Of a DNA stretch of 64,000 nt, positions 5,292 through 54,356 are shown piece after piece. Position numbers and translations under genes: made by a program. The notes below the pieces were generated by a model. It was not told the DNA's origin. It saw only the letters and a program-made list of their open reading frames with translations, and searched no databases. This DNA comes from an uncultured Desulfotomaculum sp. (GTDB taxonomy: Bacteria > Bacillota > Desulfotomaculia > Desulfotomaculales > Desulfotomaculaceae): contig CAMKDG010000001.1 in assembly GCA_946411205.1 (NCBI GenBank), positions 8,478 through 72,477 on the forward strand, in the 5' to 3' direction. Position 1 is the first letter of the stretch; the number at the start of each line of letters is the position of its first letter.

Positions 5292-5969
5292 TTGAGCATA
5301 AATCAAAATATTACTTTGATCAAAGAACAAATTGCCAGAAGTGCCGAGAAAGCTGGCAGAAATCCGAATGACATTAAGCTGATTGCGGTTAGTAAGAATA
5401 TGACTGCAGATAAAGCCAGAGAAGCTGTTGCTGCAGGCTTGGTTGATTTAGGTGAGAACCGGGTACAAGAACTAATGGACAAGCATCCTTTGGTAGAAGG
5501 AGCCCACTGGCATCTGATAGGACATCTACAGACCAATAAAGTTAAATACATTGTGGGTAAGGTTGTCATGGTTCATTCACTGGATCGCTGGTCTTTAGCA
5601 CTGGAACTGGATCGACGAGCCAGGGAAGCAGGGATCATCATACCAACTTTGGTGCAAGTAAATGTGGCAGGCGAAGAAACCAAATTTGGTCTCGCGGTAC
5701 CGGAAGTGAGAGAGTTTATTACCGAAGCAGCAACTTTACCGGGTATCTCTATTCGGGGGCTAATGACCATTGCACCCTATGTAGAGAATCCAGAGGAAGT
5801 AAGGCCGGTGTTCAAACAATTAAGAAATATCTCCTACGGCCTAAGGGAAATCCCCGGTGTAAGGATGGAACAACTTTCGATGGGGATGAGCAATGATTTT
5901 GCTGTAGCCCTAGAGGAGGGTTCCACCATGATAAGAATTGGTACAGCAATCTTTGGCAGCCGGAAATAA
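5292..5969 (+). CDS. yggS: PLP-binding homeostasis protein YggS/YlmE
   Basis: Motifs LIAVSK, GENRVQE, HLIGHLQTNK, SMGMSNDF and IRIGTAIFG. Confidence 0.9.
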   Translation: MSINQNITLIKEQIARSAEKAGRNPNDIKLIAVSKNMTADKAREAVAAGLVDLGENRVQELMDKHPLVEGAHWHLIGHLQTNKVKYIVGKVVMVHSLDRWSLALELDRRAREAGIIIPTLVQVNVAGEETKFGLAVPEVREFITEAATLPGISIRGLMTIAPYVENPEEVRPVFKQLRNISYGLREIPGVRMEQLSMGMSNDFAVALEEGSTMIRIGTAIFGSRK

Positions 5970-5981
5970 GGAGGGATACTT

Positions 5982-6419
5982 ATGGCCATAGGGATGTTTG
6001 ATAAGATGCTAGCCATGATGGGTTTTGATGATGTGGAGGAATCAAAGGAGGAAAAGGAATTCGAAAGAAATGAAGTACAACCACAAACCACGCGTAAAAA
6101 CGCTCCCGTGGTAAGTCTGCATACCGGACGGCAGTTTCGAGTGGTGGTCTGTGAGCCTGCTTCCTTTGATGAGGCCCAAAATATTGCCGATAATCTGAAA
6201 AACCGTCGGGCCGTGGTGGTTAACTTGGAAAAGGCCGGTGCCGAGCAAGCCCGGCGCATTGTTGATTTTGTCAGTGGGACAACCTTTGCCTTAAGCGGTA
6301 ATATGGAAAAGGTGGGTCAAAATATTTTTCTTTTTGTACCTAATAACATAGACATTGCCAATGAAACCAGGAGAGAGTATAAAGAGAAAAGCATTTTTTC
6401 CTGGGCTAAGTCACAATAA
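5982..6419 (+). CDS. sepF: Cell division protein SepF
   Basis: Conserved C-terminal core (VVVCEPASFDEAQNIADNLKNRRAVVVNL, DFVSGTTFAL) and its position after ylmE. Confidence 0.9.
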   Translation: MAIGMFDKMLAMMGFDDVEESKEEKEFERNEVQPQTTRKNAPVVSLHTGRQFRVVVCEPASFDEAQNIADNLKNRRAVVVNLEKAGAEQARRIVDFVSGTTFALSGNMEKVGQNIFLFVPNNIDIANETRREYKEKSIFSWAKSQ

Positions 6420-8349: not shown

Positions 8350-8602
8350 AATATGCTTATCTCCTGTGAACGGGAAAGTAAATTGGTGGGAGTCTGTACA
8401 GAGAGTCCGGGATTGGTGCAAGCCGGGCCAGAACCATCCTTTGAAGATCACCCGGGAGGTGCCTACTGAAACCCTGGATTAGGGGAGTAAGTTTGGCCGT
8501 TAACATCGACGTTAAAGGTGTATCGAGTGTTCAGGTTTTTGTCTGTTCATGAGGGTGGTACCGCGGGTTATCAACTCGTCCCTTTTTAGGGACGGGTTTT
8601 TT
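8350..8602 (+). promoter_or_regulatory. T-box leader (Ile) with terminator/antiterminator
   Basis: T-box sequence AGGGTGGTACCGCGG (8552-8566). Terminator CGTCCC-N6-GGGACG plus T-run (8577-8602). Candidate AUC specifier at 8447-8449. Precedes ileS. Confidence 0.85.
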
Positions 8603-8636: not shown

Positions 8637-11429
8637 TTGGATTACAGCAAAACCTTAAATTTGCCCCAAACCGAGTTTCCCATGCGGGGCAATCTACCCC
8701 AAAGGGAACCGGAAATCTTAAAACATTGGCAAGAGATGGATCTGTACAATAAGGTTCAGGAGAAGAACCAAGGCAAGACCAAGTACATTCTGCACGACGG
8801 TCCTCCTTATGCCAACGGGCATATTCACCTAGGGCATACCTTGAATAAAGTTCTAAAGGATATGATTGTTAAGTACCGCTCCATGAGTGGTTACGACTCC
8901 CCCTATATCCCAGGCTGGGATACCCATGGCCTACCCATTGAACAACAGGCCATCAAGCAATTGGGTATTAACCGTCACCAGATTGATTCGGTGGAGTTTC
9001 GCAAAAAGTGCAAAGAGTATGCCTTGGAGTTTGTCAATATTCAAAGTGAAGAATTTCAGCGTTTGGGTGTACGGGGAGACTGGGCGCGCCCCTACATTAC
9101 CTTACTGCCTCAGTACGAAGCCACTCAGATTCGTGTATTTGGTGAAATGGCCAAGAAGGGCTACATCTATAAAGGCTTAAAACCGGTTTACTGGTGTGCC
9201 AGTTGCGAAACGGCTCTGGCCGAAGCGGAAGTGGAGTATGCTGACAAGACCTCACCGTCTATTTATGTAAAATTCGCGGTTAAAGATGGCAAGGGTATGC
9301 TGCCCGAAGATGCAGCGGTGGTTATTTGGACCACCACTCCCTGGACCTTGCCTGCCAACGTAGCCATTAGTGTACACCCGGAATTTGAGTACGTTTTAGC
9401 GCTGGTGAAGGGGCAGAAAGTAGTAGTAGCCAAAGAATTGCTGGCAGCCTTTAAGAAGGTAATGGAAACAGAAGAAGCAGAAGTTTTGGCCACTTATAAA
9501 GGGGAACAACTGGACCGGGTGGTTTGTCACCATCCCTTTGTGGAGCGTGACTCCCTGATTATCTTAGGCGACCATGTTACTCTGGAGGCCGGTACCGGTG
9601 CGGTACACACCGCTCCAGGACATGGTGAGGATGACTTTATCGTAGGGAAGAAATATAACCTGCCGGTATTGGCTCCCATAGATAACAAAGGTAAGTTCAC
9701 TGCCGAGGGCGGCAAGTTTGCCGGTCAGTTTATTCTAGATGCGAACAAAACCATTGTTGAAGAATTAAAAGAACGGGAAGCACTGATGGGACATGCTCAG
9801 ATTAAGCACCAGTACCCCCACTGCTGGCGTTGTAAGCAACCCATTATTTTCCGGGCCACGGAGCAATGGTTTGCTTCGGTGGAAGGCTTCCGCCAGGATG
9901 CTCTGAATGCCATTCGCAATGTTAAATGGGTACCGGAATGGGGCCAGAACCGTATTTACAACATGGTGGAAGGCCGCGGCGACTGGTGCGTCTCTCGTCA
10001 AAGGACCTGGGGTGTGCCTATTCCCATTTTCTACTGTAACGACTGTGGCAAAGAAATTATTACCGAAGAAACCATCGCTCATATTCAGAAATTGTTTAAG
10101 GAGCATGGTTCGGACATTTGGTTTGCCAAAGAAGCCAACGAATTAGTGCCGCCGGGTTTCACCTGCCCCTGCTGTGGCAAAGGTAAGGACTTCCGTAAAG
10201 AAACCGACATCATGGATGTTTGGTTTGATTCCGGCTCCAGTCACTTGGCCGTACTGGATCAGCCCGAGCTGTGGCCGGAACTGCAGTGGCCGGCAGACTT
10301 ATATTTGGAAGGCAGTGATCAGCACCGTGGTTGGTTTAACTCTTCCCTGTCCACCTCGGTGGCGGTTACGGGTAAGCCCCCCTACAAAGCTGTACTAACC
10401 CATGGTTTTCTGGTGGATGAAAAGGGACGCAAAATGTCCAAGTCCCTGGGGAATGTAGTAGATCCCTTGAAAGTAATTAACCAAATGGGTGCCGATATTC
10501 TGCGGTTATGGGTTTCTTCTGCAGATTACCGCAGTGATCTGTCAGTATCTCCGAACATTATCAAACAGATGACCGAGTCCTACCGGAAGATCAGAAATAC
10601 TGCCCGGTTCCTATTGGGTAATCTGTATGATTTTGACCCGGCTAAAGATAAGGTAGCCTATGAAAAATTGCCCGAACTGGATCGGGTAGCCCTATTGGAA
10701 CTGCACAAGTTAATTAAGAGGGTGCTTAGTGCCTACGAAAACTACGAATTCCACGTTGTTTACCATGCTGTTCATAATTACTGTGTAGTGGATCTCAGTG
10801 CCTTCTATTTGGATATCATCAAGGATCGCCTGTACACTGCACCTCCGGCTTCCCTGGAGCGCCGGGCTGCTCAGACCGTGCTCTACGAAGCACTGGATGC
10901 GTTGGTACGGCTACTGACACCGGTACTGGCTTTTACCACTGAGGAAATTTACAAACATATGCCGGTAGTTGGTGAGAGATTAGCCAGTGTACAGTTACTG
11001 GATATGCCCGAAGTAAATGAGGAATATCTGGATGTGGAACTGGAGAAAAAATGGGATAAGTTCCAGGAAATCCGCAAAGAGGTACTAAAGTCTCTGGAAG
11101 TGGCTCGCCAAAATAAGGTTATCGGTAACGCTCTGGAAGCGAAAGTAGACCTCTACGTCGCCGGCGAAGTGGCAGCCCTTTTGCAACCGATGGCAGATGA
11201 GCTAACCACTCTGTTCATTGTTTCCAAAGTAAACCTGCAGCAGCTCAAAGCTGCACCGGCGGAGGCTGTTCAGGCGGAAGAGCTAGAATTGGCTATATTA
11301 GTAGCCCCGGCTAAAGGCGATAAATGCGAACGCTGCTGGATGTACCACGAAGCAGTGGGTCAAGATACTGAACACACCTCCCTGTGTCCCCGTTGTGCGG
11401 GAGTAGTGAAGGAACATCATAGTTACTAG
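8637..11429 (+). CDS. ileS: Isoleucyl-tRNA synthetase
   Basis: HIGH motif (PYANGHIHLGH), KMSKS and a C-terminal Zn-finger CERCW...CPRC; 930 aa. Confidence 0.97.
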   Translation: MDYSKTLNLPQTEFPMRGNLPQREPEILKHWQEMDLYNKVQEKNQGKTKYILHDGPPYANGHIHLGHTLNKVLKDMIVKYRSMSGYDSPYIPGWDTHGLPIEQQAIKQLGINRHQIDSVEFRKKCKEYALEFVNIQSEEFQRLGVRGDWARPYITLLPQYEATQIRVFGEMAKKGYIYKGLKPVYWCASCETALAEAEVEYADKTSPSIYVKFAVKDGKGMLPEDAAVVIWTTTPWTLPANVAISVHPEFEYVLALVKGQKVVVAKELLAAFKKVMETEEAEVLATYKGEQLDRVVCHHPFVERDSLIILGDHVTLEAGTGAVHTAPGHGEDDFIVGKKYNLPVLAPIDNKGKFTAEGGKFAGQFILDANKTIVEELKEREALMGHAQIKHQYPHCWRCKQPIIFRATEQWFASVEGFRQDALNAIRNVKWVPEWGQNRIYNMVEGRGDWCVSRQRTWGVPIPIFYCNDCGKEIITEETIAHIQKLFKEHGSDIWFAKEANELVPPGFTCPCCGKGKDFRKETDIMDVWFDSGSSHLAVLDQPELWPELQWPADLYLEGSDQHRGWFNSSLSTSVAVTGKPPYKAVLTHGFLVDEKGRKMSKSLGNVVDPLKVINQMGADILRLWVSSADYRSDLSVSPNIIKQMTESYRKIRNTARFLLGNLYDFDPAKDKVAYEKLPELDRVALLELHKLIKRVLSAYENYEFHVVYHAVHNYCVVDLSAFYLDIIKDRLYTAPPASLERRAAQTVLYEALDALVRLLTPVLAFTTEEIYKHMPVVGERLASVQLLDMPEVNEEYLDVELEKKWDKFQEIRKEVLKSLEVARQNKVIGNALEAKVDLYVAGEVAALLQPMADELTTLFIVSKVNLQQLKAAPAEAVQAEELELAILVAPAKGDKCERCWMYHEAVGQDTEHTSLCPRCAGVVKEHHSY

Positions 11430-11444
11430 GTAAAGCAGAAACAA

Positions 11445-11478
11445 AAATCCAGCCTCAAGGGGCTGGGTTTTCGTTTTT
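11445..11478 (+). terminator. Rho-independent terminator after ileS
   Basis: CCAGCC-tcaagg-GGCTGG followed by TTTCGTTTTT. Confidence 0.7.
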
Positions 11479-11556: not shown

Positions 11557-11585
11557 TTGCTATACCTGATTTTTTTTGGCATAAT
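11557..11585 (+). promoter_or_regulatory. Putative promoter of the Moco leader transcript
   Basis: TTGCTA, 17 nt, (TGg)CATAAT with an extended -10. Confidence 0.45.
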
Positions 11586-11637
11586 AAATACAATCTAACA
11601 AAATTTGGTACAGAAGTTTTAAATTGCAAAAGTTATT

Positions 11638-11779
11638 ACCTCCGAGCTTTGGAACCTGTGATAGTGGATTATGGTTCTTTAGCCGTTAGGGTTCACCTGG
11701 AAACGGGTGTGCCTCCCGTGTGGAAAGGATGGTAGGTTTATTAAACATACCTTTAACCGCACTTTATGCGGTTTTTTTT
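11638..11779 (+). promoter_or_regulatory. Moco (molybdenum cofactor) riboswitch-like element 1 with its own terminator
   Basis: Blocks CCTCCGAGC, GCCGTTAGGGTT, GGAAACGGGT, GCCTCCC and GGAAAGGA. Terminator AACCGCA-cttta-TGCGGTT plus T8 (11755-11779). Confidence 0.7.
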
Positions 11780-11796
11780 GTATATAAAGATAAAGT

Positions 11797-11959
11797 TCTC
11801 CGAGCCATAATACCTAATACTGTTGTGATGGTGCTATGGCCGTATAGGGTTAATCGGGAAACGGGTTAGCCTCCCTTTGGAAAGGAGAGCGCATTATTCC
11901 GCCTTGTTAGGTAGGGTTGGTTTATGCTGCTTTCTTTAGGCGCATATGCCGGCTTTTTT
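11797..11959 (+). promoter_or_regulatory. Moco riboswitch-like element 2 with a weaker terminator-like hairpin
   Basis: The same blocks in the same order: CTCCGAGCC, GCCGTATAGGGTT, GGAAACGGGT, GCCTCCC, GGAAAGGA. Hairpin GGTTTATGC/GCATATGCC (11919-11950), then GGC plus T6. Confidence 0.65.
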
Positions 11960-12022
11960 ATTGTTTAGACATGTAATCATTAAACTATAGCAAGACTTAA
12001 CTTTGTGGTCGGAGGCGATGGG

Positions 12023-12277
12023 ATGACAACAAAGATTAGTGATACGGATGCTATTTTAACTTTGTCCTTAGTTATTGCAGATATGGCGACACTGATTGAG
12101 CACGATGTGGTGCACAGAAATATTATTAACGTTACTAATGAGCTAGTTTGTAATGCGGCAGGGAAACCATTGTCAAATGATTTTTTTAATACTTTGGGTA
12201 TTTTAGTGGATCTATTAAAGCAGGAAAAAGAAAATGCGCTTAAAAGAATAGAAGGTACTGAGTATCTGTCATCCTAG
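12023..12277 (+). CDS. Hypothetical 84-aa protein, the only ORF downstream of the tandem Moco leaders
   Basis: GGAGG lies 7 nt before the ATG at 12023 (the track start at 12005 is a GTG inside the RBS). No recognisable motif. Followed by a 14-bp-stem hairpin. Confidence 0.5.
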   Translation: MTTKISDTDAILTLSLVIADMATLIEHDVVHRNIINVTNELVCNAAGKPLSNDFFNTLGILVDLLKQEKENALKRIEGTEYLSS

Positions 12278-12286
12278 AAGATAAAT

Positions 12287-12344
12287 GCTAATCAGGCCAA
12301 TACCCGTGCTAGTCTTTTTCTAGCTCGATGTTGGCCTGATTAGC
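12287..12344. terminator. Long hairpin between convergent genes (bidirectional terminator candidate)
   Basis: Perfect 14-bp arms GCTAATCAGGCCAA and TTGGCCTGATTAGC, with an inner GCTAG/CTAGC stem. Confidence 0.6.
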
Positions 12345-12376
12345 GTTTATCTCTATGTGGTTTATTTTTGGTTCCC

Positions 12377-12997
12377 TCACGGTGATTGAGTTCGGGCTTG
12401 AGCAACCACTTTTTCCGGAAAAGCATGTTTAAATTGTATTTTTGCCCATTCTCTGTAAGAGGTGCCAGCGTTAAATAGGTCTTCGAGTATTTGTTTCATT
12501 TCTTCGAGTTCTTCTATGTCACCAGAGGGTAGTTGTTGGACAACCGAAGAGGTACCTGCTGGTGTCTTTGTCACAGTTCCGGTGGATTTTTCCCACCGCC
12601 CCTCAAGTTCCTTCCTAATGACTTCCTTTTTTTCCTCTAACAACTCAGCCTGTGTTTGCAGGTGTTCCGGCAAACTATTTTGCAGAGGCAGTTTATGGTT
12701 AACTAGATAATTGTAATAAGAACTTATGGATGGCTGGCTATTTAGTTGTTCTACCAATTTCGTAATTCTTTCCTCGGGAGATGTAAACATCTCCCCTTCG
12801 CCGTTTCTCAGCCATGATTCTGAGACACCATACCGAACACAAATATGTTTTAGTAAGGAATCAGAAGCCTTTTTTGAGGCACTTTCAATATTCCCAACAT
12901 GACTTCTATCTATGCCCAAGTCCTGAGCCATCAGAGACTGGGTTAAGCCAAGGGTATCTCTTAATAATTTAAATCTCTCTGAAATACTCATATACAT
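12377..12997 (-). CDS. XRE-family HTH transcriptional regulator with an uncharacterised C-terminal domain
   Basis: N-terminal HTH LGLTQSLMAQDLGIDRSHVGNIE and the typical VSESWLRNGEGEMF segment. The C-terminal 130 aa has no recognised motif. Confidence 0.8.
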   Translation of the reverse strand: MYMSISERFKLLRDTLGLTQSLMAQDLGIDRSHVGNIESASKKASDSLLKHICVRYGVSESWLRNGEGEMFTSPEERITKLVEQLNSQPSISSYYNYLVNHKLPLQNSLPEHLQTQAELLEEKKEVIRKELEGRWEKSTGTVTKTPAGTSSVVQQLPSGDIEELEEMKQILEDLFNAGTSYREWAKIQFKHAFPEKVVAQARTQSP

Positions 12998-13049
12998 TCC
13001 TTCTCAGAAGTATTTATTAATAACGTCGATTCTTGGAAGCACATTGCTG

Positions 13050-13078
13050 TTGACTTGGTGTCTCAGAAGCATTATACT
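13050..13078 (+). promoter_or_regulatory. Sigma-A-type promoter facing moeA
   Basis: TTGACT, 17 nt, TATACT. A leader of about 350 nt, AT-rich, lies before moeA. Confidence 0.5.
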
Positions 13079-13429
13079 GACGTTAACTATTAAGGTTAAA
13101 AATGCCAATTGAATCAATAATTTTAGTGGGAAAGGAGAGGGTAAAAAAAGCATTTTTAAGATAATTTTGGATAAGTGACACAAAAAACCAAAAAATAAAA
13201 ATAAAGAACCAAGCAGTTAAAAAACCACTACACATTAAATATACTTATTCTATTTTAAATATTAAACATTTTTCTTACTGATAGTAACAAATTTTAAGTT
13301 TTCTGACAAGGGTTTTAGAAAAACAGTAGTAGAAGATACATGGCTCATCCAAAAAATATTTAGTTAATTAGTTTATGAAGTTAGTATTCCTAGTTTTAAT
13401 AAATTAAGAAAGTAAATGGGAGAGCTAAA

Positions 13430-14662
13430 ATGTACAGGGAAATACCACTTGAAGAAGCAGTAGCCATCTTGATGAAGTATACAAAACCGATTGGTTTTGA
13501 TGAAATTGATATAGTTGATGCCTTGGGACGAGTTTTAAATGAGAATATTACTACCAGTTTTCCCCTTCCTCCTTTTAATAGGTCTCCCCTGGATGGATAT
13601 GCTGTTATGGCCGAAGATACAATTCATGCCAGCAAAGAACAGCCAATCCGCCTTAAGGTAAGTCAAAATATCTTTGCAGGTGATTTGCCGTTAAAACCCA
13701 TAGTATCTGGAGAAGCTGCTGCCATCGCTACTGGTGCGCCAATTCCCTCTGGTGCCAATGCCGTAATAAAAATAGAAGATACGCAACTGGCAGAAGACGA
13801 CGTTTTACTATTTTCTCAACTTAAACCGGGTGATAATTTTATCAACCAAGGCGACGATGTTCTCGAAGGGGAGCAGATCCTTTCCCAAGGGATGCTGATT
13901 ACTCCTGCCGTTATAGGCTTATTAGCTTCTTTAGGAAGAAAAAATGTAAAGGTTTTTAAAAGGCCTAAAGTAGCAGCCTTATCCATTGGTGACGAATTAG
14001 TAGGGATTGGTGAACCCAGGACGCCAGGGAAAATATACAACAGTAATCTCTACGCAATTTCTGCTCAGATAACGGAGGCAGGGGGAATGCCGGTTCCCTA
14101 TAGGAACACTGTTGATGATAAGAACCAGATAGCTTTTTTGCTGGATAGTTGCTTACAGGAAAATGATATGGTCATTACCACAGGCGGGGTATCGGTAGGC
14201 AAAAGAGATTATGTCAAAGAATCCATAGCCATAAGTGGGGCTAACACCCTTTTTTGGAAAGTAAATATAAAACCGGGAACTCCAGTTGTCTGCGGTGAGA
14301 AAAATGGTCGTTTGATCATTGGCCTATCTGGAAATCCTGCAGCAGCTATGATTACTTTTTATATGTTGATTAGACCTGTTTTACAAAAAATAAGTGGCTT
14401 GCAACAGGTAAATTTACCCCATGTAACGGCTATTATGGAGGAACCCTTTACGAAAAAAAGCAAGCAACGACGCATGCTGCGGGCAAATGTTTACTGGAAA
14501 AACGGTTATTATCATGCTGTGCCCAGTGGCACGCAGAGTCCGGGGGCTTTAAAATCAATGTTGCAATGCAATGCACTTATTGATATCCCTGGGGGCAAGG
14601 GCCCACTAAATATTGGTGAAGAAGTAAAAGTCATATTGTTGTCGCCTAATTATATTTTATAG
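13430..14662 (+). CDS. moeA: Molybdopterin molybdenumtransferase MoeA
   Basis: Motifs SPLDGYAV, TGAPIP.GANAV, ITTGGVSVGKRDY and GLSGNPAAAM. Confidence 0.92.
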   Translation: MYREIPLEEAVAILMKYTKPIGFDEIDIVDALGRVLNENITTSFPLPPFNRSPLDGYAVMAEDTIHASKEQPIRLKVSQNIFAGDLPLKPIVSGEAAAIATGAPIPSGANAVIKIEDTQLAEDDVLLFSQLKPGDNFINQGDDVLEGEQILSQGMLITPAVIGLLASLGRKNVKVFKRPKVAALSIGDELVGIGEPRTPGKIYNSNLYAISAQITEAGGMPVPYRNTVDDKNQIAFLLDSCLQENDMVITTGGVSVGKRDYVKESIAISGANTLFWKVNIKPGTPVVCGEKNGRLIIGLSGNPAAAMITFYMLIRPVLQKISGLQQVNLPHVTAIMEEPFTKKSKQRRMLRANVYWKNGYYHAVPSGTQSPGALKSMLQCNALIDIPGGKGPLNIGEEVKVILLSPNYIL

Positions 14663-14723
14663 TATTTTTATATTCCAATAATTCATAATATTTTAAATTT
14701 TTAAATAGGTAGGAGGTGGGTAA

Positions 14724-15224
14724 ATGGCAAATATTCCCATGGTGTCAGTTGTAGGAAAATCAGACGCTGGCAAAACAACCTTTATAGAAAAACTAATTAA
14801 AGAGCTAAAGTACAGAAATATCAAGGTGTGTACAATAAAACACGATGTCCATGGCTTTGACATTGATAAACCAGGCAAGGATACCTGGCGCCATTCCCAA
14901 GCTGGTGCAGATACGGTGGTCATATCTTCACCTCAAAAAATGGCCATGATCACAAGGGTTTTTGAGGAATTAAACTTGGATCAGATTGCAGAAATAGTTA
15001 GTGATGATACGGATATTATCATTACGGAGGGTTATAAAAGATCGAATAAACCTAAAATTGAAATCAGTCGTTCCGAGAGAGGCACAGAACTTTTGTGTAC
15101 TCCGGATGAACTAATTGGGTTGGTAAGTGATATACCCTGGAGTATAGGTGTACCAGTTTTCCAACTTGATGATGCACCAGGAGTTGCAGACTTGTTGCAG
15201 GATAAATTTAAACTGCGCTCCTGA
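14724..15224 (+). CDS. mobB: Molybdopterin-guanine dinucleotide biosynthesis adapter MobB
   Basis: P-loop VVGKSDAGKTT, motifs IKHD.HGFDID.PGKDTWRH and IITEGYK. Confidence 0.9.
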   Translation: MANIPMVSVVGKSDAGKTTFIEKLIKELKYRNIKVCTIKHDVHGFDIDKPGKDTWRHSQAGADTVVISSPQKMAMITRVFEELNLDQIAEIVSDDTDIIITEGYKRSNKPKIEISRSERGTELLCTPDELIGLVSDIPWSIGVPVFQLDDAPGVADLLQDKFKLRS

Positions 15225-15275
15225 GGGTAAATTTAAAGAAGGAGGGGTGGGTTTAAAAAGTCCGGCCCAATTAGT

Positions 15276-15299
15276 GATGTTTCAAATAGATGTTTCAAA
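15276..15299 (+). repeat. Tandem direct repeat GATGTTTCAAA x2 upstream of the fdh operon
   Basis: Copies at 15276-15286 and 15289-15299, 13-bp period, about 45 nt before the fdnG start. Confidence 0.6.
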
Positions 15300-15341
15300 A
15301 CTAATTTTGAATCCCATATATACAAGGGAGGATAGTACATC

Positions 15342-18300
15342 ATGCGGAAGATGAATAGGCGCGATTTTTTAAAAAATATAAGCCTTGGAACTACCGGGTT
15401 AGCTTTGGTAGCTACTCCTGCCCTAGCCGGAGAGTCCCAGGGTAAGATTACCGGAGAAAAACTACCTGCCAAAATAAGAAAAGTTAAAGAAACCTATTCT
15501 ATATGTTGTTTCTGTGGCTGCGGTTGCGGCCTATTGCTGTATTCTAACGAAGAAGATCGTTTAGTCTTTTCTGAAGGTTACCCGGACCATCCAGTTAATG
15601 CCGGAACCATTTGCCCTAAGGGAAACGGCATCATTGAAGGAAATACTGTTATCAACAAAAAAAGAAACCGTGAATCTAACAGACTGCGGGTTACCAAACC
15701 CCTTTACCGTGCTCCCGGTAGTAGTAAATGGGAAGAGAAAAGCTGGGACTGGGTTATGGCTGAAATTGCTCAGAGAGTTAAGAAAACCCGTGATGAATCC
15801 TTTGTGGAGAAGGATGAGCATGGCGTAACTGTCAACAGGACAACTGCCATGGCTCACGTTGGTGCAGCAGCCCTTGATAATGAAGAGATTTACCTCTTGC
15901 ACAAAATGTACCGAGCCTTGGGCATGCTTAATATTGAACACTGTGCCCGACTCTGACACTCGTCCACGGTAGCCGGTCTGGCTCCCAGTTTCGGACGCGG
16001 AATTATGACCAATCACTTTGTTGATTATAGAAATGCCGATGTAGTTTTAATCATTGGCTCAAATACTGCAGAAAATCACCCCATGGGCATGAAATGGGCC
16101 ATGAAAGCCAAGGAAAAAGGTGCCAAACTCATTGCCGTTGACCCAAGGGTTAGTAAATCAGCTAGCATGTGTCATGTCCATGCACGGCTACGGCCTGGTA
16201 CCGATATTGCATTCATTAATGGCATGATGAATTATATCATTGAGAATGATCTTTGGTTTAAAGACTATGTGCTCAATTATACCAATGCCAGCTTTTTAAT
16301 CCATCCCGACTATAAATGCGAAGATGGTATCTTCTCAGGCTTTACAGATATTGATGGTAAACTAAGTTATGATACCGCCACCTGGCAATATCAAAAGGAT
16401 GGCGATGTCATCAAAAAGGATCCCACCTTACAAGATCCCAATTGTGTTTTCCAAATTCTCAAGAAGCATGTAAGTCGTTATGATATTAAAACTGTCTGTC
16501 AAATTACTGGTACACCGGAAGATACATACAGAAAGGTCTGTGAAATGTATGCTTCCAGTGGCAAACGGGATAAAGCAGGCTGTGTTATCTATGGTATGGG
16601 CATAACTATGCACTCTGTTGGTACACAAAATGCCAGAGCACTTTGTGTATTGCAGTTGCTTCTTGGTAATATGGGTATTCCCGGCGGTGGTGTCAATGCT
16701 CAGCGTGGTGAACAAAACGTTCAGGGCTCCACTGATATGGCTATGCTGCATGGCAATCTACCCGGTTACCTGGGTATGGTTTACGCCAATAAACACAAAA
16801 CATTGGCGGAGTATATTGAAAAAGAAACCCCCACGGGATATTGGTCTAATAAACCTAAGTTTTTAGTCAGTCAGTTAAAGGCTTGGTACGGGGATAAAGC
16901 AACCCCAGAAAATGATTTTTGTTATGATTGGCTGCCTAAACATGACGGAAAGAACCGTTCCTACATGAGTTTATTCAATTACATGGAAAAAGGTGAAGTA
17001 AAGGGCTTTTTTGTAGCCGGTCAGAACCCCTCCGTTGGCGGGCCCTCCACGATCCAAGCCAACCAAGCCATGGAAAACCTGGAATGGCTGGTGGTTTATG
17101 ATATTTTTGAAATTGAAACAGCGGCGTTCTGGAAACGGCCAGGGGCTGATCCAAGTAAGATCAAGACCGAAGTATTCCTTTTGCCGGCGGCCATGTCCTT
17201 TGAAAAGGAAGGCTCGGTTACCAATGCCGGGCGTTGGATGCAGTGGCGTTATAAGGCTGTAAATCCGCCTGGGGAAGCTAAATCCGATCTTTGGATGTTC
17301 TACAACTTATTTAATACCATTCGCAAAGAATATCAAAAGGGCGGTAAATTCCCCGATCCAGTATTAAATATGACCTGGGATTATGATCTACCGGGTGAGG
17401 AAGAACCGGATATTGCCAAGGTAGCTAAAGAAATTAACGGCTATGAGGTTGCCACCGGCAATGTACTGTCGGGTTTTGCTAAGTTAGCAGCGGATGGTTC
17501 CACTGCTTGTGGTAACTGGTGTCTCAGTGGCTATTGGTTTGAGGATAAAGATGCCAAGGTGCCGGCTTGCAAACGCCGGATTAACAAAGACCCCTCTGGC
17601 ATGGGTGTATTCCCGCAATATGCCTTTTCTTGGCCAGCTAACCGTCGTATTGCTTATAACCGTTGTTCCGCCGACCCTGCGGGCAATCCCTGGAATCCCC
17701 AGAAGCCCTATGCCAGATGGGATGTACTGGCGGGCAAATGGGTAATCCCAGACGTACCCGACTTCAAGGCTACAGAACCAGCACCTAATCCCAGTGACCC
17801 TCCCATTCCAGTGCCACCGGAGAAGTCGGCTGTGGATGCCTATATTATGTCCGAGGACGGTCATGGACGTTTATTTGCTGTTAAAGGCTTAAGTGACGGC
17901 CCGTTGCCGGAACACTATGAACCCTATGAAAGTCCCTTTAGAAATCTTATTTCTCAGCAACAAAATAACCCGATGGCACTTACCTTTAAAACCGGTTTAT
18001 TTAGTAAAATAGCAGAAATTGGTAGTGAGAAATATCCCTGTGTCGCCATTACTGTTCATCTTGTAGAACATTACCAAAGTGGTGCAACCACCCGGAATTG
18101 TCCCTCCTTAGCTGAAATTTCAGCTCATATGTTTGTTAACATTTCACCTAGTTTAGCTCAAAAAATTGGGGTTAAGAATGGTGATGATGTTATTGTGGAA
18201 TCTGTTCGGGGCCAAATCACCTGTAAGGCGGCTGTTAACGGTGTCTGTGTGCCGCTAATGGTCAACGGCAAAGAAACCGAAGTGATATCTATGCCTTATT

Positions 18301-18431
18301 CCTGGGGCTTTATGGGTATAGCCACAGGTGCCTCGGCTAATGATTTGACTCCCTCGGTGGGTGATCCGAACAGTAACATACCGGAATACAAAGCATTTCT
18401 TTGCAATGTAAGAAAGGCAAACAAGAGTTGA
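15342..18431 (+). CDS. fdnG: Formate dehydrogenase catalytic subunit (FdnG-like, Tat-exported molybdopterin enzyme) with selenocysteine at UGA 15954-15956
   Basis: Twin-arginine signal NRRDFLK. Fe-S motif CCFCGCGCG. The segment [30 protein letters not shown] parallels E. coli FdnG around its Sec. Track ORFs 15342-15956 and 16005-18431 are in the same frame. Confidence 0.9.
15961..15997 (+). other. SECIS-like stem-loop immediately 3' of the UGA
   Basis: CGTCC (15961-15965) pairs with GGACG (15993-15997). Apical AGCC-GGUCU-GGCU resembles the GGUC-type loop of E. coli fdhF SECIS. Confidence 0.55.
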
Positions 18432-18462
18432 AACTAGCAAGTTTTTATTGGAGGTGTAATAA

Positions 18463-19275
18463 ATGGCCAAGGGTGTGCTTGTAGATATAACAAAATGTAT
18501 CGGCTGTAAAGCCTGTCAAGTAGCCTGCAAACAATGGAATGATTTACCTGCTAAAATTCCCGAGTTTGTAGATGGTTTAACTGGGCCACCGGATATGGAT
18601 GGCGATACCTATACCGTTGTCAAATTTAAAGTAGTGGAAATGGCTGGTGAATATAAAATTCGCTCGGCTAAGAAGCAATGTATGCATTGCCAACACCCTG
18701 CTTGTGTATCAGCATGTTTTGCCAAAGCCTTGGAGAAGGACCCCAAGACTGGTGCAGTAATATATCATCCGCATCTTTGTGTTGGTTGCCGTTACTGCAT
18801 GTTGGCTTGTCCCTTCGATATTCCTAAGTATGAGTGGGAGAAGACCTTCCCGTTGATTGCCAAGTGCCAATTTTGCTTTGATCCCCAGGATAAATATGAT
18901 CGCCTAAGCTATGGTAAGCCACCAGCCTGTGTGGATACTTGCATAACCGGGGCCCTCGTTTATGGTGAGCGGGATGAGTTGTTAAAAGAGGCCTGGAACA
19001 GAATTAATAGTGATCCTTCCTATATCAAAAAGGTATTGGGAGAAAAAGAAGCCGGTGGAACTTCCTGGCTATATATTTCCGATGTGCCCTTTGAAGACTT
19101 TGGCTTCCGTCCCAATCTGGGTACCAGACCGTTACCCGAGTACTCTCACGACTTCCTGAAGTATACACCGATTATTGCGGTGGGGTGGGGTACTTTACTG
19201 ACCGTTCTGTATCATTATACAAAACGGCGTGAACAAGTCGCTTCCGAAAGCGATAACAAAGATGTTCACCTGTAG
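18463..19275 (+). CDS. fdnH: Formate dehydrogenase iron-sulfur subunit (FdnH-like, 4x[4Fe-4S], C-terminal TM anchor)
   Basis: CIGCKACQVAC, CMHCQHPACVSAC, CVGCRYCMLACP and CQFC...C motifs. C-terminal helix IIAVGWGTLLTVLYHY. Confidence 0.9.
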   Translation: MAKGVLVDITKCIGCKACQVACKQWNDLPAKIPEFVDGLTGPPDMDGDTYTVVKFKVVEMAGEYKIRSAKKQCMHCQHPACVSACFAKALEKDPKTGAVIYHPHLCVGCRYCMLACPFDIPKYEWEKTFPLIAKCQFCFDPQDKYDRLSYGKPPACVDTCITGALVYGERDELLKEAWNRINSDPSYIKKVLGEKEAGGTSWLYISDVPFEDFGFRPNLGTRPLPEYSHDFLKYTPIIAVGWGTLLTVLYHYTKRREQVASESDNKDVHL

Positions 19276-19320
19276 GCAACGGATAAATGGCAACCAAATG
19301 GTTATTAGGGGGGGAAAATA

Positions 19321-20484
19321 ATGTCGGCAGATAAAGGGTTGTTTCAAGAAATAGCTGCCTATAAATGGAAATTTACAATGACCACTGCCCGCAAAATATT
19401 AATCCTGTTGGCTGGCCTCGGTGTGGTATGTATGCTTTACCGACTGGCTACTGGTTTAGGAAGCGCTACCAATCTTAATGATCAGTGGCCTTGGGGCCTA
19501 TGGATTGGCTTTGATGTTCTGACCGGTGTTGCGTTGGCAGGTGGGGGTTACGGTACGGCCATTATCGTGCACGTACTGCATAGAAACAAGTATCTTGCCA
19601 TTGCCCGCAGCGCTATGTTAACTTCATTGCTGGGCTACCTATTAGTGATGGCTGGTTTGTTTATGGATATTGGTCAATGGTTTAACTTTTGGCGACCCTT
19701 TGTATCCTGGGGTCATACCTCGGTACTCTTTGAAGTTTTCTGGTGTGTATCTTGTTATACCACCGTGCAGGTACTGGAATTTGGTGAAATCCTCACCGAA
19801 AAGGTTGGTACCAAATATCATAATTTCTTTAAAAAGGCCTTGCCTGTATTAATGGTCTTGGGAATTATTTTCCCCACCCTGCACCAGTCCTCTCTTGGGG
19901 CACTGTATATCATTATGGTTGATAAGCTACACCCACTATGGTGGTCTCCATATATTGGTTTAATGTTCTTAATGTCTTCCTTCTTTGTGGGGCCCGCTAT
20001 GATTTGTGTTGAAACAGCCTTGGCGGGTAAGGCTTTCAAGCATGAAGTGCCAGTTTCTGTTTTACGTGGATTGGTACGGATAGCCGGTGTGTTTATGATT
20101 CTGTATCTGGGGCTGAAGTTCTATGATCTGGCTGCTAGGGGAGTTGTTAACCAGATCTTTGCAGGGAATTTAGAAGGAAATATGTTCCTGGCAGAAATTA
20201 TCTTGGGGGTTATTATCCCAGTCTGCATCGCTTTTAGTGGCATGAGCAATACAAGGAAGGGTTTAATTACCTTTGGTATATTGGTCAGCGGTGGGTTAAT
20301 TTTCAACCGCATGAACGTGGTGTTTACCGGGATGTCTGCCGCCCTTGGTGGTTGGTATTTCCCCTCCATCATGGAATGGGCTGTTAGTGTTGGTTTAATC
20401 TCCATTGGTTGTTTAGCTTACTGCTTTATTGCTGAAAACTTTAATATTTTAGTACACCAGAATCACCAGGAGGCAAGTATGTAA
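19321..20484 (+). CDS. NrfD/PsrC/HybB-family polytopic membrane subunit (quinone-interacting anchor)
   Basis: 387 aa with about 8-10 hydrophobic helices. It occupies the position of fdnI but is much larger than a 4-TM cytochrome b. Confidence 0.7.
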   Translation: MSADKGLFQEIAAYKWKFTMTTARKILILLAGLGVVCMLYRLATGLGSATNLNDQWPWGLWIGFDVLTGVALAGGGYGTAIIVHVLHRNKYLAIARSAMLTSLLGYLLVMAGLFMDIGQWFNFWRPFVSWGHTSVLFEVFWCVSCYTTVQVLEFGEILTEKVGTKYHNFFKKALPVLMVLGIIFPTLHQSSLGALYIIMVDKLHPLWWSPYIGLMFLMSSFFVGPAMICVETALAGKAFKHEVPVSVLRGLVRIAGVFMILYLGLKFYDLAARGVVNQIFAGNLEGNMFLAEIILGVIIPVCIAFSGMSNTRKGLITFGILVSGGLIFNRMNVVFTGMSAALGGWYFPSIMEWAVSVGLISIGCLAYCFIAENFNILVHQNHQEASM

Positions 20485-20508
20485 ACAGATACCAAAGGAG
20501 TTGCTCTA

Positions 20509-21339
20509 ATGGAGACAAGGGATCACATCAAGAGATTGGCAGATTTTTATCTCGAGCTAATGGATCTGGAAAAAGATAATCCTTCCTTGGAGTTTACAGT
20601 GAGTTTTGACTCCGAACAAACACAACAGTGGAGCCAGGGCCAAGCGGCCCTGGCTATAGCCCCACCGGAAATCGAGGCAGCCAGTGTATTTACACATTTT
20701 TACTCGGTGGCAAAGGCCTGTCAAAGGTGGCAGGTTGGGCCAAAGCCAGTAACGGAAGAGTTTTTAAAAGGTTTGGAAGAATTATCCCAGGGGCAAAGGG
20801 AAGAATTAATAGTATCTTTGTTTCGAGTGAAGGGCAAAAATTTTAAAGTTGCCGAAGAGCTAAAAGCTCCTTCGGGGCTGTTGGAGTTTATTGCCGCCAA
20901 TGCCTTTAAACCTCTTTTAAAGAAATATGGGGAAATGGTACTAAGTCAGGTTAAAATAAGCAACTGGCTGAAGGGATACTGCCCGATTTGTGGAGATCAA
21001 CCAACTCTGGCTAAGCTTACCGGTAAAGATGGGCATCGTGAGCTATATTGCGGGCGTTGTGAAATGAATTGGCATTTTGAACGATTGGGCTGTCCTTATT
21101 GCGAGGAGAAGGGTGCTTCAGAAGCTTCCTTTATTGCTATTGATGAAAACAAACAATACCGTGTTTATCTATGTGATAAATGCAAGCGCTATTTAAAAAC
21201 GGTGGATGAGCGGGAATGTGGGGAAGTTGATCTGTTTTGTGAGGATTTAGCCACCAATGCATTGGATGAAATAGCGCAAGCGGAGGGATACCAGAGGGAT
21301 AATCATAAAGATGACTGCTTTAGTGGGGTTACCTGCTAA
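20509..21339 (+). CDS. fdhE: Formate dehydrogenase accessory protein FdhE
   Basis: Four CxxC pairs (CPICGD, CGRCEMNW, CPYCEE, CDKCKRYLK) in the FdhE arrangement. Confidence 0.85.
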   Translation: METRDHIKRLADFYLELMDLEKDNPSLEFTVSFDSEQTQQWSQGQAALAIAPPEIEAASVFTHFYSVAKACQRWQVGPKPVTEEFLKGLEELSQGQREELIVSLFRVKGKNFKVAEELKAPSGLLEFIAANAFKPLLKKYGEMVLSQVKISNWLKGYCPICGDQPTLAKLTGKDGHRELYCGRCEMNWHFERLGCPYCEEKGASEASFIAIDENKQYRVYLCDKCKRYLKTVDERECGEVDLFCEDLATNALDEIAQAEGYQRDNHKDDCFSGVTC

Positions 21340-21799: not shown

Positions 21800-22136
21800 A
21801 GTTGTCTCCTCCTTAGGAACAAGAAACCCCCCCGAGAAAGGGAGGCTTCTTTTACCAGGTTTTTATCATCAAAACTCCCAAGGAACTTCGTACTCTAAGA
21901 CCCACAGAGAGTGACGGAGCTATCCATAGGGTAAGTTTACGGATGACAAAACCGGGCTGATATCATTATTTCCTGGATGGGCAAAAATATTTATCAATGA
22001 TTCAAATTTTGACGACATATGATAGTGTAGGATTAATAATTTTACTAATCTGAAAAATTTTTTTTTATTTACAAGGATTTTTAAAGTTGTAACAGAAATT
22101 TATCTTTATCGGACAATTGAATACTTACGGATGATG

Positions 22137-22373
22137 GCTGTGGGAGAGACCCGAAAAGAGGGCGCCGAAGGAGCACGAGGGCTTACCGTGCTGTGGTAAC
22201 CGTTTAAACTCTCAGGCAAAAGGACTGCGGTCAGACGTACTCTGGAGAGTTCCCACCGATTAATCGTGTGGGACACCAAAGGGGCAGCCTCTAGGAATAG
22301 AGGTCATCTTTCAGGTTAAAAGGACAGAGTTATACCAGCTTGGGTATAATTCTGTCCTTTTTGTATTCTAGTA
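22137..22373 (+). promoter_or_regulatory. Tandem glycine riboswitch (two aptamers) plus terminator
   Basis: Aptamer 1: GGGAGAG...GCGCCGAAGGAGCA...CTCAGGCAAAAGGAC. Aptamer 2: CTGGAGAG...GACACCAAAGGGGCA...TTCAGGTTAAAAGGAC. Terminator GGACAGAgTTATACC/GGGTATAATTCTGTCC plus T5 (22331-22373). Precedes gcvT. Confidence 0.9.
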
Positions 22374-22418
22374 AAGAATTCTTACCCGGAACATACTATA
22401 ACAAAGGAGGTGGAGGGT

Positions 22419-23519
22419 GTGTCTGTACTGAAGCGTACGCCTCTTTATGATGCTCACCTAGCCGCCGGGGCTAAAATGGTTGAATTTGGCGGTTGGCTAA
22501 TGCCAATTCAGTATGAAGGAATACTGAAAGAACATCAGGCTGTGAGGACTGCAGCCGGTTTATTTGATGTTTCCCATATGGGGGAAATCGAAATTACTGG
22601 GGTAGGTGCCAGAAATCTGCTGCAAAGACTAATCACCAACGATGTCGAGCGATTGAAGCCTGGCTGTGCTCTATATTCACCCCTGTGTAACCCCGAGGGA
22701 GGGACTATTGATGACCTACTGGTGTACCAAGTGGAGGACGATCGGTACCTGTTGGTTGTTAATGCTTCTAACATTGACAAAGATTATCGTTGGCTTCAGA
22801 ATCAGGCTGTGGACCAAGAGGATGTTACAATACAAAATGTGTCTGAAGTGACTTGCCAATTGGCACTGCAAGGACCTGCTGCTGAAAAGGTTTTACAAAG
22901 GCTTACCGCTATTAATCTGAATGAAATTAAGTATTTTTGTTTTGTGTACGGTCTGGTAGAAGGGGTACAATGCCTTATTTCCCGTACAGGCTATACCGGG
23001 GAGGACGGTTTTGAGTTGTATTTTCCCTCCGAGCATGCAGCAACTCTTTGGCAGGCTATTCTGACGGCAGGGCAGGGAGAGGGTGTTCAACCAGTGGGTT
23101 TGGGAGCCAGGGATACCCTGCGCTTTGAAGCTTGTTTGGCCCTCTACGGACATGAACTGACCGACGAAATCTCACCCCTGATGGCTGGTTTAGGGTGGAC
23201 AGTGAAGCTAAACAAACCTGATTTTATTGGTCGGGAAGCCCTGAGCAAAGAAAAAGCAGCCGGAATTAGCCATAGGCTGGTGGGTTTAGAAATGATTGAA
23301 CGAGGCATTCCCCGTCAGGGCTATCTCCTACAAAAAGAAGGGCAAGAAATTGGCTGGGTAACGTCCGGTACCTTTTCCCCGACTCTTGCTAAAAATCTTG
23401 GCTTGGCCTATGTATTGACTCAGTACGCAGAGCTTGGCAGCGAAGTGGATGTAATGGTTCGCAATAAGCCAGTCAAAGCGTGTATAGTACCAAAACCATT
23501 TTACAAACGGGAGGTATAA
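22419..23519 (+). CDS. gcvT: Glycine cleavage system aminomethyltransferase GcvT
   Basis: Motifs [29 protein letters not shown]. The GTG at 22419 lies 8 nt after AGGAGG (the track start at 22410 overlaps the RBS). Confidence 0.93.
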
Positions 23520-54029: not shown

Positions 54030-54356
54030 GTGGGAGCCCCGAGCCTTTGTCGACACTTGCATCCAGATTCCGTCTGTGTTAACATAAAGGTGTGTACTAG
54101 TTATTTTTGTAACAAAGGAACGCCCTACTTTGTGCGTGCAATATCTGAAGTTTTGAGCCAACAGATGTTGAAACGGGAGTCCGATTTCTTGCAAGGGAAT
54201 GTAGACCTTACGAGTATAAGGAAACAGGAAATTGTGGAAAGGGCACCCACCTGTGAGTACAGGTTCAACAAACTTTGGATACGGACACGGCAAGGCGGGG
54301 TTTCTTTGCGTTTTACTGCTAAAAACATCTCTCTGAGAGAGATGTTTTTTCTTTTT
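54030..54356 (+). ncRNA. Unassigned ~320-nt non-coding region ending in a strong terminator; candidate sRNA or structured RNA of unknown class
   Basis: Only weak overlapping ORFs on both strands, none with an RBS. Hairpin ATGCAAaAGTG...CACTTGCAT (54022-54062). Long-range pairing AACAAAGGAACGCCC (54111-) with GGCGGGGTTTCTTTGCGTT (54293-54311). Terminator ACATCTCTC-tga-GAGAGATGT plus T6 (54321-54356). Confidence 0.3.

Follow-up and report, generated by a model that had tools for sequence, protein, structure and literature searches.

Here we describe two complete riboswitches of the RF01055 family that stand in series within a 64,000-nucleotide stretch of DNA from an uncultured Desulfotomaculum sp. 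(contig CAMKDG010000001.1, positions 8,478 to 72,477; from here on the window, whose own numbering is used for all coordinates given without the name of another locus). Both aptamers are full-length, each has a terminator and an antiterminator of its own, and together they precede a small open reading frame (ORF) that encodes an 84-residue orphan protein. We consider it likely that they form two independent OFF switches in series for the same metal-pterin cofactor. The family, which Rfam titles 'Molybdenum/Tungsten riboswitch aptamer, Moco RNA motif', covers both the molybdenum cofactor (Moco) and the tungsten cofactor (Tuco, also called Wco) as ligands, and several features discussed below point to the latter.

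A cmscan search with Rfam 15 placed aptamer 1 at 11628-11746 (69.6 bits, E 1e-14) and aptamer 2 at 11786-11903 (72.8 bits, E 1.2e-15), both on the plus strand. These scores are roughly twice the gathering score of RF01055 (36 bits), both alignments span model positions 1-135 of 135 with only the positions of helix P3 deleted, and a local Rfam search repeats the two matches at E 3e-16 and 4e-17. The double match is far above chance, and membership of the family is established. A previous reading of this DNA, made from its letters without database searches (the sequence-only reading), had recognized five ordered blocks in two copies about 160 nt apart and had named the RF01055 covariance model as the appropriate check, which both copies have now passed. 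All five blocks are indeed present twice on the plus strand, with an offset of 158 nt from copy 1 to copy 2: CTCCGAGC at 11640 and 11798, GCCGTTAGGGTT at 11682 and its counterpart GCCGTATAGGGTT at 11839, GGAAACGGGT at 11699 and 11857, GCCTCCC at 11711 and 11869, and GGAAAGGA at 11722 and 11879. Of these, GGAAACGGGT has no third occurrence anywhere in the window.

The two copies in the window are about 65-67% identical, and their P2 and P4 helices differ from each other by compensatory changes. RNAalifold, when given six aptamers (copies 1 and 2 of the window, of D. ruminis and of D. aeronauticus), recovered P2, P4 and P5, with changes on both sides in 6 of the 25 base pairs, mostly between the copies, and the covariation of the structure is established in this way. 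Helix P1 was taken from the cmscan alignment and from single-sequence folds rather than from RNAalifold, and for copy 1 that alignment flags non-canonical positions in P1. Like the Moco/Tuco motif described by Regulski et al. in 2008 (PMC2408646), the window aptamers have P1, P2, P4 and P5, a GAAA tetraloop in P4 (GGAAAC in both copies) and no P3, and they share its core of CUCCGAGC, AGGG, CCUCCC and GGAAAGGAG. Read from sequence only, the P2 bulge of copy 2 would hold a near-canonical tetraloop receptor-like sequence (CCUAAU...GAUGG), of which the counterpart in copy 1 (CCUGUG...UAUGG) would be a variant.

The riboswitches belong to a block of genes that is kept in seven distinct Desulforamulus-type lineages, and that runs from the riboswitch(es) through the small ORF and a convergent helix-turn-helix (HTH) gene to moeA, mobB, (tatA) and genes for a selenocysteine formate dehydrogenase (FDH). 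All homologues of the small ORF are located in this block. Upstream of the riboswitch the genes vary by lineage (ileS, a LysR gene, a GMC oxidoreductase, XdhC, spore germination genes, an IclR gene), yet moeA, mobB and the FDH always travel with the switches; on this comparison of gene orders, they form a co-travelling unit with the riboswitch as its left edge. Five of the seven lineages carry two aptamers, namely D. ruminis (L001), D. aeronauticus (L004, with the near-identical metagenome contigs L006/L008) and three metagenomic lineages, one of them the window and the others L015 and L016/L017. The two remaining lineages, which are more divergent, carry a single aptamer (L018, 4900-5021; L020, 2449-2573). 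When genome contigs were searched with the HTH alignment, the only matches were D. aeronauticus and unrelated HTH proteins, and no further loci were gained.

The single aptamers group with copy 2, to which they are 83-90% identical versus 62-65% to copy 1, and their lineages carry the same terminator 2; aptamer 2 of the window is the counterpart of the singlet aptamer. Orthologues of copy 1 are 90-97% identical and form a clade of their own, those of copy 2 are 81-89% identical, and across lineages the two copies are 61-71% identical to each other. Since copies 1 and 2 form separate clades, the duplication must be older than these species. A recent duplication is rejected, as the clades span the species, in line with what the sequence-only reading had argued from the variable helices. 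By these comparisons the doublet is old and maintained. Either copy 1 and its terminator were inserted downstream of the promoter, ahead of a switch that was already in place, or they were lost in the singlet clade; the set of loci, which has no outgroup, would fit both. Two loci that are otherwise not close, L006 (~5625-5725) and L015 (~5640-5730), have an insert of ~100 nt between units 1 and 2 with an extra hairpin that ends in AAGTTTTTCTAA. Neither the window nor D. ruminis or D. aeronauticus has this insert, which may act as one more terminator or represent a small mobile insertion.

Conservation of this kind also bears on whether one or both copies could be decaying relics without a regulatory role. 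The gene downstream is an orphan with no obvious link to the cofactor, and two lineages manage with a single aptamer, both of which would suit a relic. Against this, the scores lie about twofold above the gathering threshold, the helices are kept by compensatory change, both aptamers keep 81-97% identity between species in which the intergenic DNA nearby has diverged, and each copy retains both its terminator and its antiterminator. As such, conservation effectively refutes the idea of decay.

What, then, would the two units do to transcription? A consensus scan identified a promoter-like site at 11557..11585 on the plus strand (TTGCTA, a 17-nt spacer, and CATAAT with an upstream TG), which ends about 45 nt upstream of aptamer 1, and equivalent TTGCCA...TAATAAT or CATAAT sites are found at the same distance in L015, L016, L018 and L020. 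Within the window the same scan found no promoter-like site between units 1 and 2, and the site at 11557-11585 is likely the single promoter for both switches. Unit 1 is followed by an intrinsic terminator, detected by a terminator scan on the plus strand, that consists of a 7-bp stem (AACCGCA/UGCGGUU, 11755-11773) with a 5-nt loop and a T8 run at 11772-11779, just as the sequence-only reading had it. Its fold energy is about -8 to -9 kcal/mol (-8.3 to -8.7), and the hairpin is present in all five doublet lineages at -8 to -13 kcal/mol. For unit 2 that reading had described a weaker, 9-bp hairpin followed by T6. The T6 run was correctly placed (11954-11959), but folding of the plus strand yields a hairpin of ~18 bp with two unpaired positions at 11913-11956, which at -19 to -20 kcal/mol (-19.2 to -19.8) exceeds the strength of terminator 1, while its T-run is shorter. 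This second terminator is missed by the simple scan because its loop is longer than 8 nt. Its stem is kept in 7/7 lineages with 3' arms that vary (GCCGGCU, GCCGACU, GCCAACC, AUCAACC, ACCAACCC and AGCAACCC).

Each terminator has an alternative pairing that competes for its 5' side. In unit 1, folds of the growing transcript show how the 3' core of the aptamer, GUGUGGAAAGGAUGG at 11718-11731, pairs with 11746-11762, a segment that includes the 5' arm of terminator 1 (antiterminator 1, 11718..11762, plus strand). In these folds the aptamer with P1 is the best structure until 11755, and antiterminator 1 is the best once 11762 has been made (-43.1 kcal/mol). The GUGUGG/CCGCAC arms of this antiterminator are invariant in all five lineages with a doublet. 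In unit 2, growing-transcript folds pair AAGGAGAGCGCAU at 11882-11894, which comprises the 3' strand of P1 and beyond, with AUGCUGCUUUCUUU at 11924-11937, which comprises the inner 5' arm and the loop of terminator 2 (antiterminator 2, 11882..11937, plus strand). With 13 pairs, this is the minimum-energy fold of the transcript to 11940. An equivalent of antiterminator 2 forms in each of the seven lineages at -16 to -22 kcal/mol, and the loop of terminator 2, which provides the antiterminator strand, is nearly invariant among the orthologues. The claim of the sequence-only reading that these are two complete tandem units with separate terminators is thereby borne out, by the covariance model as well as by the doublet in five lineages.

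In the mechanism that we propose, one promoter (~11557-11585) would drive a leader with two complete and independently acting RF01055 riboswitches. As long as no ligand is bound, the aptamer's 3' core (around GGAAAGGA(G), with the 3' strand of P1) would pair with the 5' side of the terminator, resulting in read-through; with ligand bound, the aptamer would retain that segment, the terminator hairpin would form and transcription would stop. We infer the OFF direction and the dependence on ligand from these competing pairings, which follow the usual layout of an OFF switch. Read-through into the 84-residue ORF would require that both switches are unoccupied, and therefore a lower leak and a steeper dose-response than for one switch would be expected. 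By analogy, this outcome would resemble that of the 'pseudo-cooperative' tandem riboswitches with separate platforms.

Some observations do weigh against such control. The U-tracts that follow unit 1 in D. ruminis and L016 are weak, and so is the UUAAUUUUU tail after unit 2 in L001, L018 and L020. In the minimum-energy fold of the full leader, aptamer 2 and terminator 2 coexist, and control by unit 2 must therefore be kinetic; alternatively, the fold models would allow unit 2 to terminate largely constitutively. Moreover, the ORF that the switches control is an orphan without a known link to tungsten or molybdenum.

The earliest tandem Moco RNAs on record are those of S. wolfei and G. metallireducens (Regulski et al. 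2008, PMC2408646). The work of Sherlock et al. 2022 (PMC9481103) reports 13 Moco doublets and two triplets, as well as Wco tandems. Tandems of both kinds are called pseudo-cooperative there, with multiple expression platforms, and those of Wco often precede genes unrelated to cofactor synthesis. It was therefore fair of the sequence-only reading to call tandem riboswitches of the same class uncommon, though those of Moco and Wco are already documented in these two studies (PMC2408646, PMC9481103). Like the latter tandems (PMC9481103), the window holds two complete aptamers of the same class in series, with their own terminators and an expected response that is steeper and less leaky. Neither the locus nor its genus is named in the accessible parts of the two accounts (PMC9481103, PMC2408646). 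Unlike the catalogued tandems, the locus has orthologues with one aptamer (L018, L020) as well as with two, which provides a natural comparison. The window element is nonetheless an ordinary member of a described class, and its tandem layout has already been catalogued. A similar layout is that of the tandem thiamine pyrophosphate (TPP) riboswitches of Bacillus anthracis, for which Welz and Breaker reportedly described, in 2007, how two OFF switches for one ligand within one leader give a more digital response. The window pair belongs to another ligand class, and whereas the TPP case has an experimental dose-response, the window pair is known from sequence. The glycine riboswitch likewise places two aptamers of the same class side by side, but these serve one expression platform where the window has two, and nothing suggests docking between the aptamers of the window pair. 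A cooperative architecture of the glycine type was rejected, as each aptamer has its own platform.

So which cofactor is sensed? In both aptamers the P3 hairpin is deleted: model positions ~58-73 are missing from the cmscan alignments, and the spacing from GCC to AGGG, which forms the link between P2 and P4, is only 5-6 nt (GUU, GUAU), leaving no hairpin between these helices in either copy. P3 is absent in all orthologues too. The core is otherwise intact, as in the P3-lacking (Tuco/Wco) subclass, and neither copy fits the P3-containing Moco subclass. Regulski et al. split the family by this helix, where P3-lacking RNAs track tungsten-cofactor metabolism and P3-bearing RNAs were exclusively tied to Moco genes in their 2008 survey (PMC2408646). 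A 2024 study of E. limosum, using the same P3 criterion, found terminator-type P3-less switches to be up-regulated under tungsten limitation, and the platforms in the window are of the terminator type like those of its focA and fetABC1 Tuco switches (PMC11725836). Because P3 is missing in both aptamers and the literature treats its loss as the mark of Tuco or Wco, 'P3-less, tungsten-cofactor-type' is the better label, and 'Moco' is probably the wrong name for the ligand. Of the class assignment in the sequence-only reading, the RF01055 family thus stands, but not the Moco ligand that it named. COG2414 is read here as the tungsten aldehyde:ferredoxin oxidoreductase (AOR). For D. reducens MI-1, the supplement of the 2008 survey gives RF01055-type RNAs upstream of COG2414 and of TupB; it lists three single RNAs for this species, none of which is like the window locus (PMC2408646).

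With the architecture and mechanism unchanged, the ligand could instead be Moco, whose sufficiency the switches would then report beside moeA (molybdenum insertion) and mobB (the molybdopterin guanine dinucleotide, or MGD, form). In anaerobic Firmicutes and in sulfate reducers, FDHs with selenocysteine are often tungsten enzymes, which we count against Moco, together with the missing P3, the response of the E. limosum switches to tungsten limitation, and the D. reducens RNAs upstream of COG2414 and TupB. On the other side, RF01055 covers both ligands, and the neighbouring genes encode MoeA, MobB and an FDH-N-type enzyme, of a class that is dependent on molybdenum in many bacteria. Three further points weaken the case for tungsten: no tungsten-specific gene (tupABC, wtpA, AOR) turned up in those parts of the window that were annotated, the sequence of the neighbouring FDH does not reveal its metal, and the rule that equates the absence of P3 with tungsten is a correlation with known exceptions (PMC2408646). 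It should be noted that for this family even the E. coli moaA case rests on genetic evidence (PMC2408646). Taken together, a Moco ligand appears to be a lesser but serious possibility, and the tungsten cofactor would, by our rough estimate, be clearly favoured.

The two aptamers might also differ in specificity, one for the tungsten and the other for the molybdenum form, or one for the mature cofactor and the other for a pterin intermediate, in which case they would act as a two-input NOR (not-or) gate. The low identity between the copies would allow for this, and so would conserved features that are specific to each copy: the P2-P4 junction (GCCGUUAGGG versus GCCGUAUAGGG), the P5 loop (CCCGUGUGG versus CCCUUUGG) and the receptor (CCUGUG versus CCUAAU). 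Copy 1 is, furthermore, more conserved than copy 2. However, both copies are of the same P3-less subclass and have all universally conserved core blocks in common, the junction of copy 2 varies among orthologues, which argues against a finely tuned difference, and tandem same-class Moco/Wco pairs have been interpreted as responding to a single ligand (PMC9481103). We therefore regard a split in specificity as improbable, and retain two switches for the same cofactor as the preferred interpretation.

The gene that these switches control in cis is located at 12023-12277 on the plus strand, with a Shine-Dalgarno site (GGAGG) at 12011-12015. Substitutions concentrate at the third codon position, followed by the first and then the second (14, 7 and 26 at positions one, two and three when compared to D. 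ruminis), the core of the protein is conserved, and the Shine-Dalgarno site is invariant. On this pattern the ORF is a real coding gene under purifying selection. Its protein has no match in Pfam. A word-indexed homologue search returned six matches, all hypothetical proteins of Desulforamulus, and a profile search of 1.8 billion representatives returned three real matches along with three spurious, long repetitive proteins. The total comes to about eight homologues among 1.8-5.8 billion proteins, all in the same gene block. The AlphaFold2 model is a generic three-helix bundle with a predicted local distance difference test score (pLDDT) of 78, for which Foldseek found no match in the PDB at E<=0.001. 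One public gene call in this family, P0007 (147 residues; L020:2492-2935), is over-extended: the N-terminal half (…GRLGLIGKRVSLPFGKES…) results from translating the riboswitch aptamer, and the genuine small protein comprises only the last ~72 residues. RF01055 RNAs are expected in the leader of a gene for molybdenum or tungsten transport, for cofactor synthesis or for a cofactor-dependent enzyme; in the window the gene in cis is an orphan, and the cofactor genes that travel with the switches belong to another transcription unit. Because this gene is always found beside an XRE-type regulator and the moeA-mobB-selenocysteine FDH operon, the small helical protein is most likely part of the cofactor/FDH system.

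Directly downstream of the small ORF lies a long inverted repeat (AGATAAA...stem...TTTATCT, 12279..12352, no strand assigned), identified by repeat search and folding, with 22-nt arms that are 95% complementary, a fold energy of ~-49 kcal/mol, and A and T flanks. It is a probable bidirectional terminator. Strong hairpins that are not homologous to it occupy the same place in L001, L004, L016 and L020. Beyond it, and convergent with the small ORF, is the gene for an XRE-family HTH regulator of 206 residues (12377..12997, minus strand; Pfam HTH_3, HTH_19 and HTH_31), which is also divergent from moeA. The spacing between the two convergent genes differs by lineage: in the window the 74-nt hairpin lies between them, in L015 their ends are 16 nt apart (6222-6239) and in L018 35 nt apart (5397-5433). 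Neither of these two short spacers holds a hairpin, and the transcripts of the ORF and the HTH gene must therefore overlap there.

This geometry raises an alternative output, in which read-through past the small ORF into the HTH gene would lower HTH expression when cofactor is scarce, mainly in loci with a spacer of 16-35 nt. In every lineage the HTH gene lies next to the small ORF and converges with it, and in a survey of predicted antisense-acting riboswitches, Moco-family riboswitches are statistically enriched, with 24 cases (PMC9943018). As with the antisense riboswitches of that survey and Listeria B12/AspocR, the controlled transcript is directed towards a convergent regulator gene from its 3' side (PMC9943018). 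Unlike in the Listeria case, a coding ORF and a strong hairpin stand between the window switch and the convergent gene. An unterminated run into that gene would be met in the window by the hairpin at 12279-12352, which with its A/T tracts is bidirectional-terminator-like here as in four other lineages, and could hold in L015 and L018. Moreover, purifying selection acts on the small ORF, and its Shine-Dalgarno site is both strong and invariant, from which it follows that the ORF yields a product of its own. An antisense output thus seems unlikely, and the 84-residue protein is the preferred product of the tandem switches.

The genes that gave the sequence-only reading its support from molybdenum metabolism lie further on. 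They comprise moeA, mobB, the alpha subunit of an FDH-N-type selenocysteine enzyme, an iron-sulfur subunit, an NrfD-type membrane subunit and fdhE (13430..21339, plus strand; Pfam and NCBIfam), and start 1.2 kb downstream of the switches in a separate transcription unit. That reading took their proximity as support for the class, and as a conserved block this holds, but they are not controlled in cis: the small ORF, the hairpin and the convergent HTH gene stand between. An in-frame TGA at 15954-15956 splits the alpha subunit into two ORFs of the same frame (15342-15956 and 16005-18431), which implies a selenocysteine enzyme. Between 11430 and 13440, Rfam searched at a permissive threshold (E<=1) gave no further RF01055 match and no other credible family before moeA, and otherwise returned only sub-threshold miRNA/sRNA noise on hairpins.

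The intergenic region between the HTH gene and moeA measures 430 nt and contains overlapping, divergent promoter-like sites (plus strand, 13050-13078; minus strand, 13099-13071), a direct repeat TCTCAGAAG(T/C)ATT at 13002 and 13061, a palindrome CTTCTCAGAAG at 13000-13010, and a 17-nt inverted repeat of which one arm is at 13056-13072 and the other within the HTH gene (12814-12830). The repeats and the palindrome in 13000-13099 are candidate operators for the HTH protein, and these sites are conserved in D. ruminis. Closer to moeA, a 44-nt block TTTTCTTACTGATAGTAACAAATTTTAAGTTTTCTGACAAGG at 13270-13313 hardly varies between species, in contrast to its diverged flanks, and a minus-strand promoter-like site (13309-13281) overlaps it. 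These elements allow for a speculative relay, to which we give a rather low probability, whereby the cofactor level would set the amount of the orphan protein (and possibly of an antisense RNA), which would act on the XRE-type HTH protein and, through the TCTCAGAAG sites, on moeA-mobB and the selenocysteine FDH.

The window holds other structured RNAs as well. The isoleucyl-tRNA synthetase gene (8637-11429) has a T-box leader immediately before it (8357-8586, 118.5 bits) and a terminator after it (11444-11471), and a 6S RNA gene is found at 54119-54305 (95.6 bits). Glycine riboswitches usually consist of tandem aptamers; the one at 22131-22237, upstream of an ORF at 22410-23519, has a single aptamer above the gathering score (60.5 bits), no search having been made for a degenerate second one.

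These findings add a well-supported and conserved example of tandem P3-less (tungsten-cofactor-type) riboswitches with separate terminators, and the orthologous loci with one and with two aptamers offer a ready comparison for whether doubling sharpens the response. For the specialist, the interest lies in the target, a genus-restricted orphan of 84 residues that is never found apart from the XRE regulator and the moeA-mobB-selenocysteine FDH operon. If it is true that this small protein links cofactor status to the expression of FDH and cofactor-insertion genes, it would represent a new kind of riboswitch output. Should the relay exist, the riboswitch would govern both metal insertion and the synthesis of the apo-enzyme not in cis but by way of a protein partner switch, and the singlet and doublet lineages would show how evolution has tuned the sharpness of the response.

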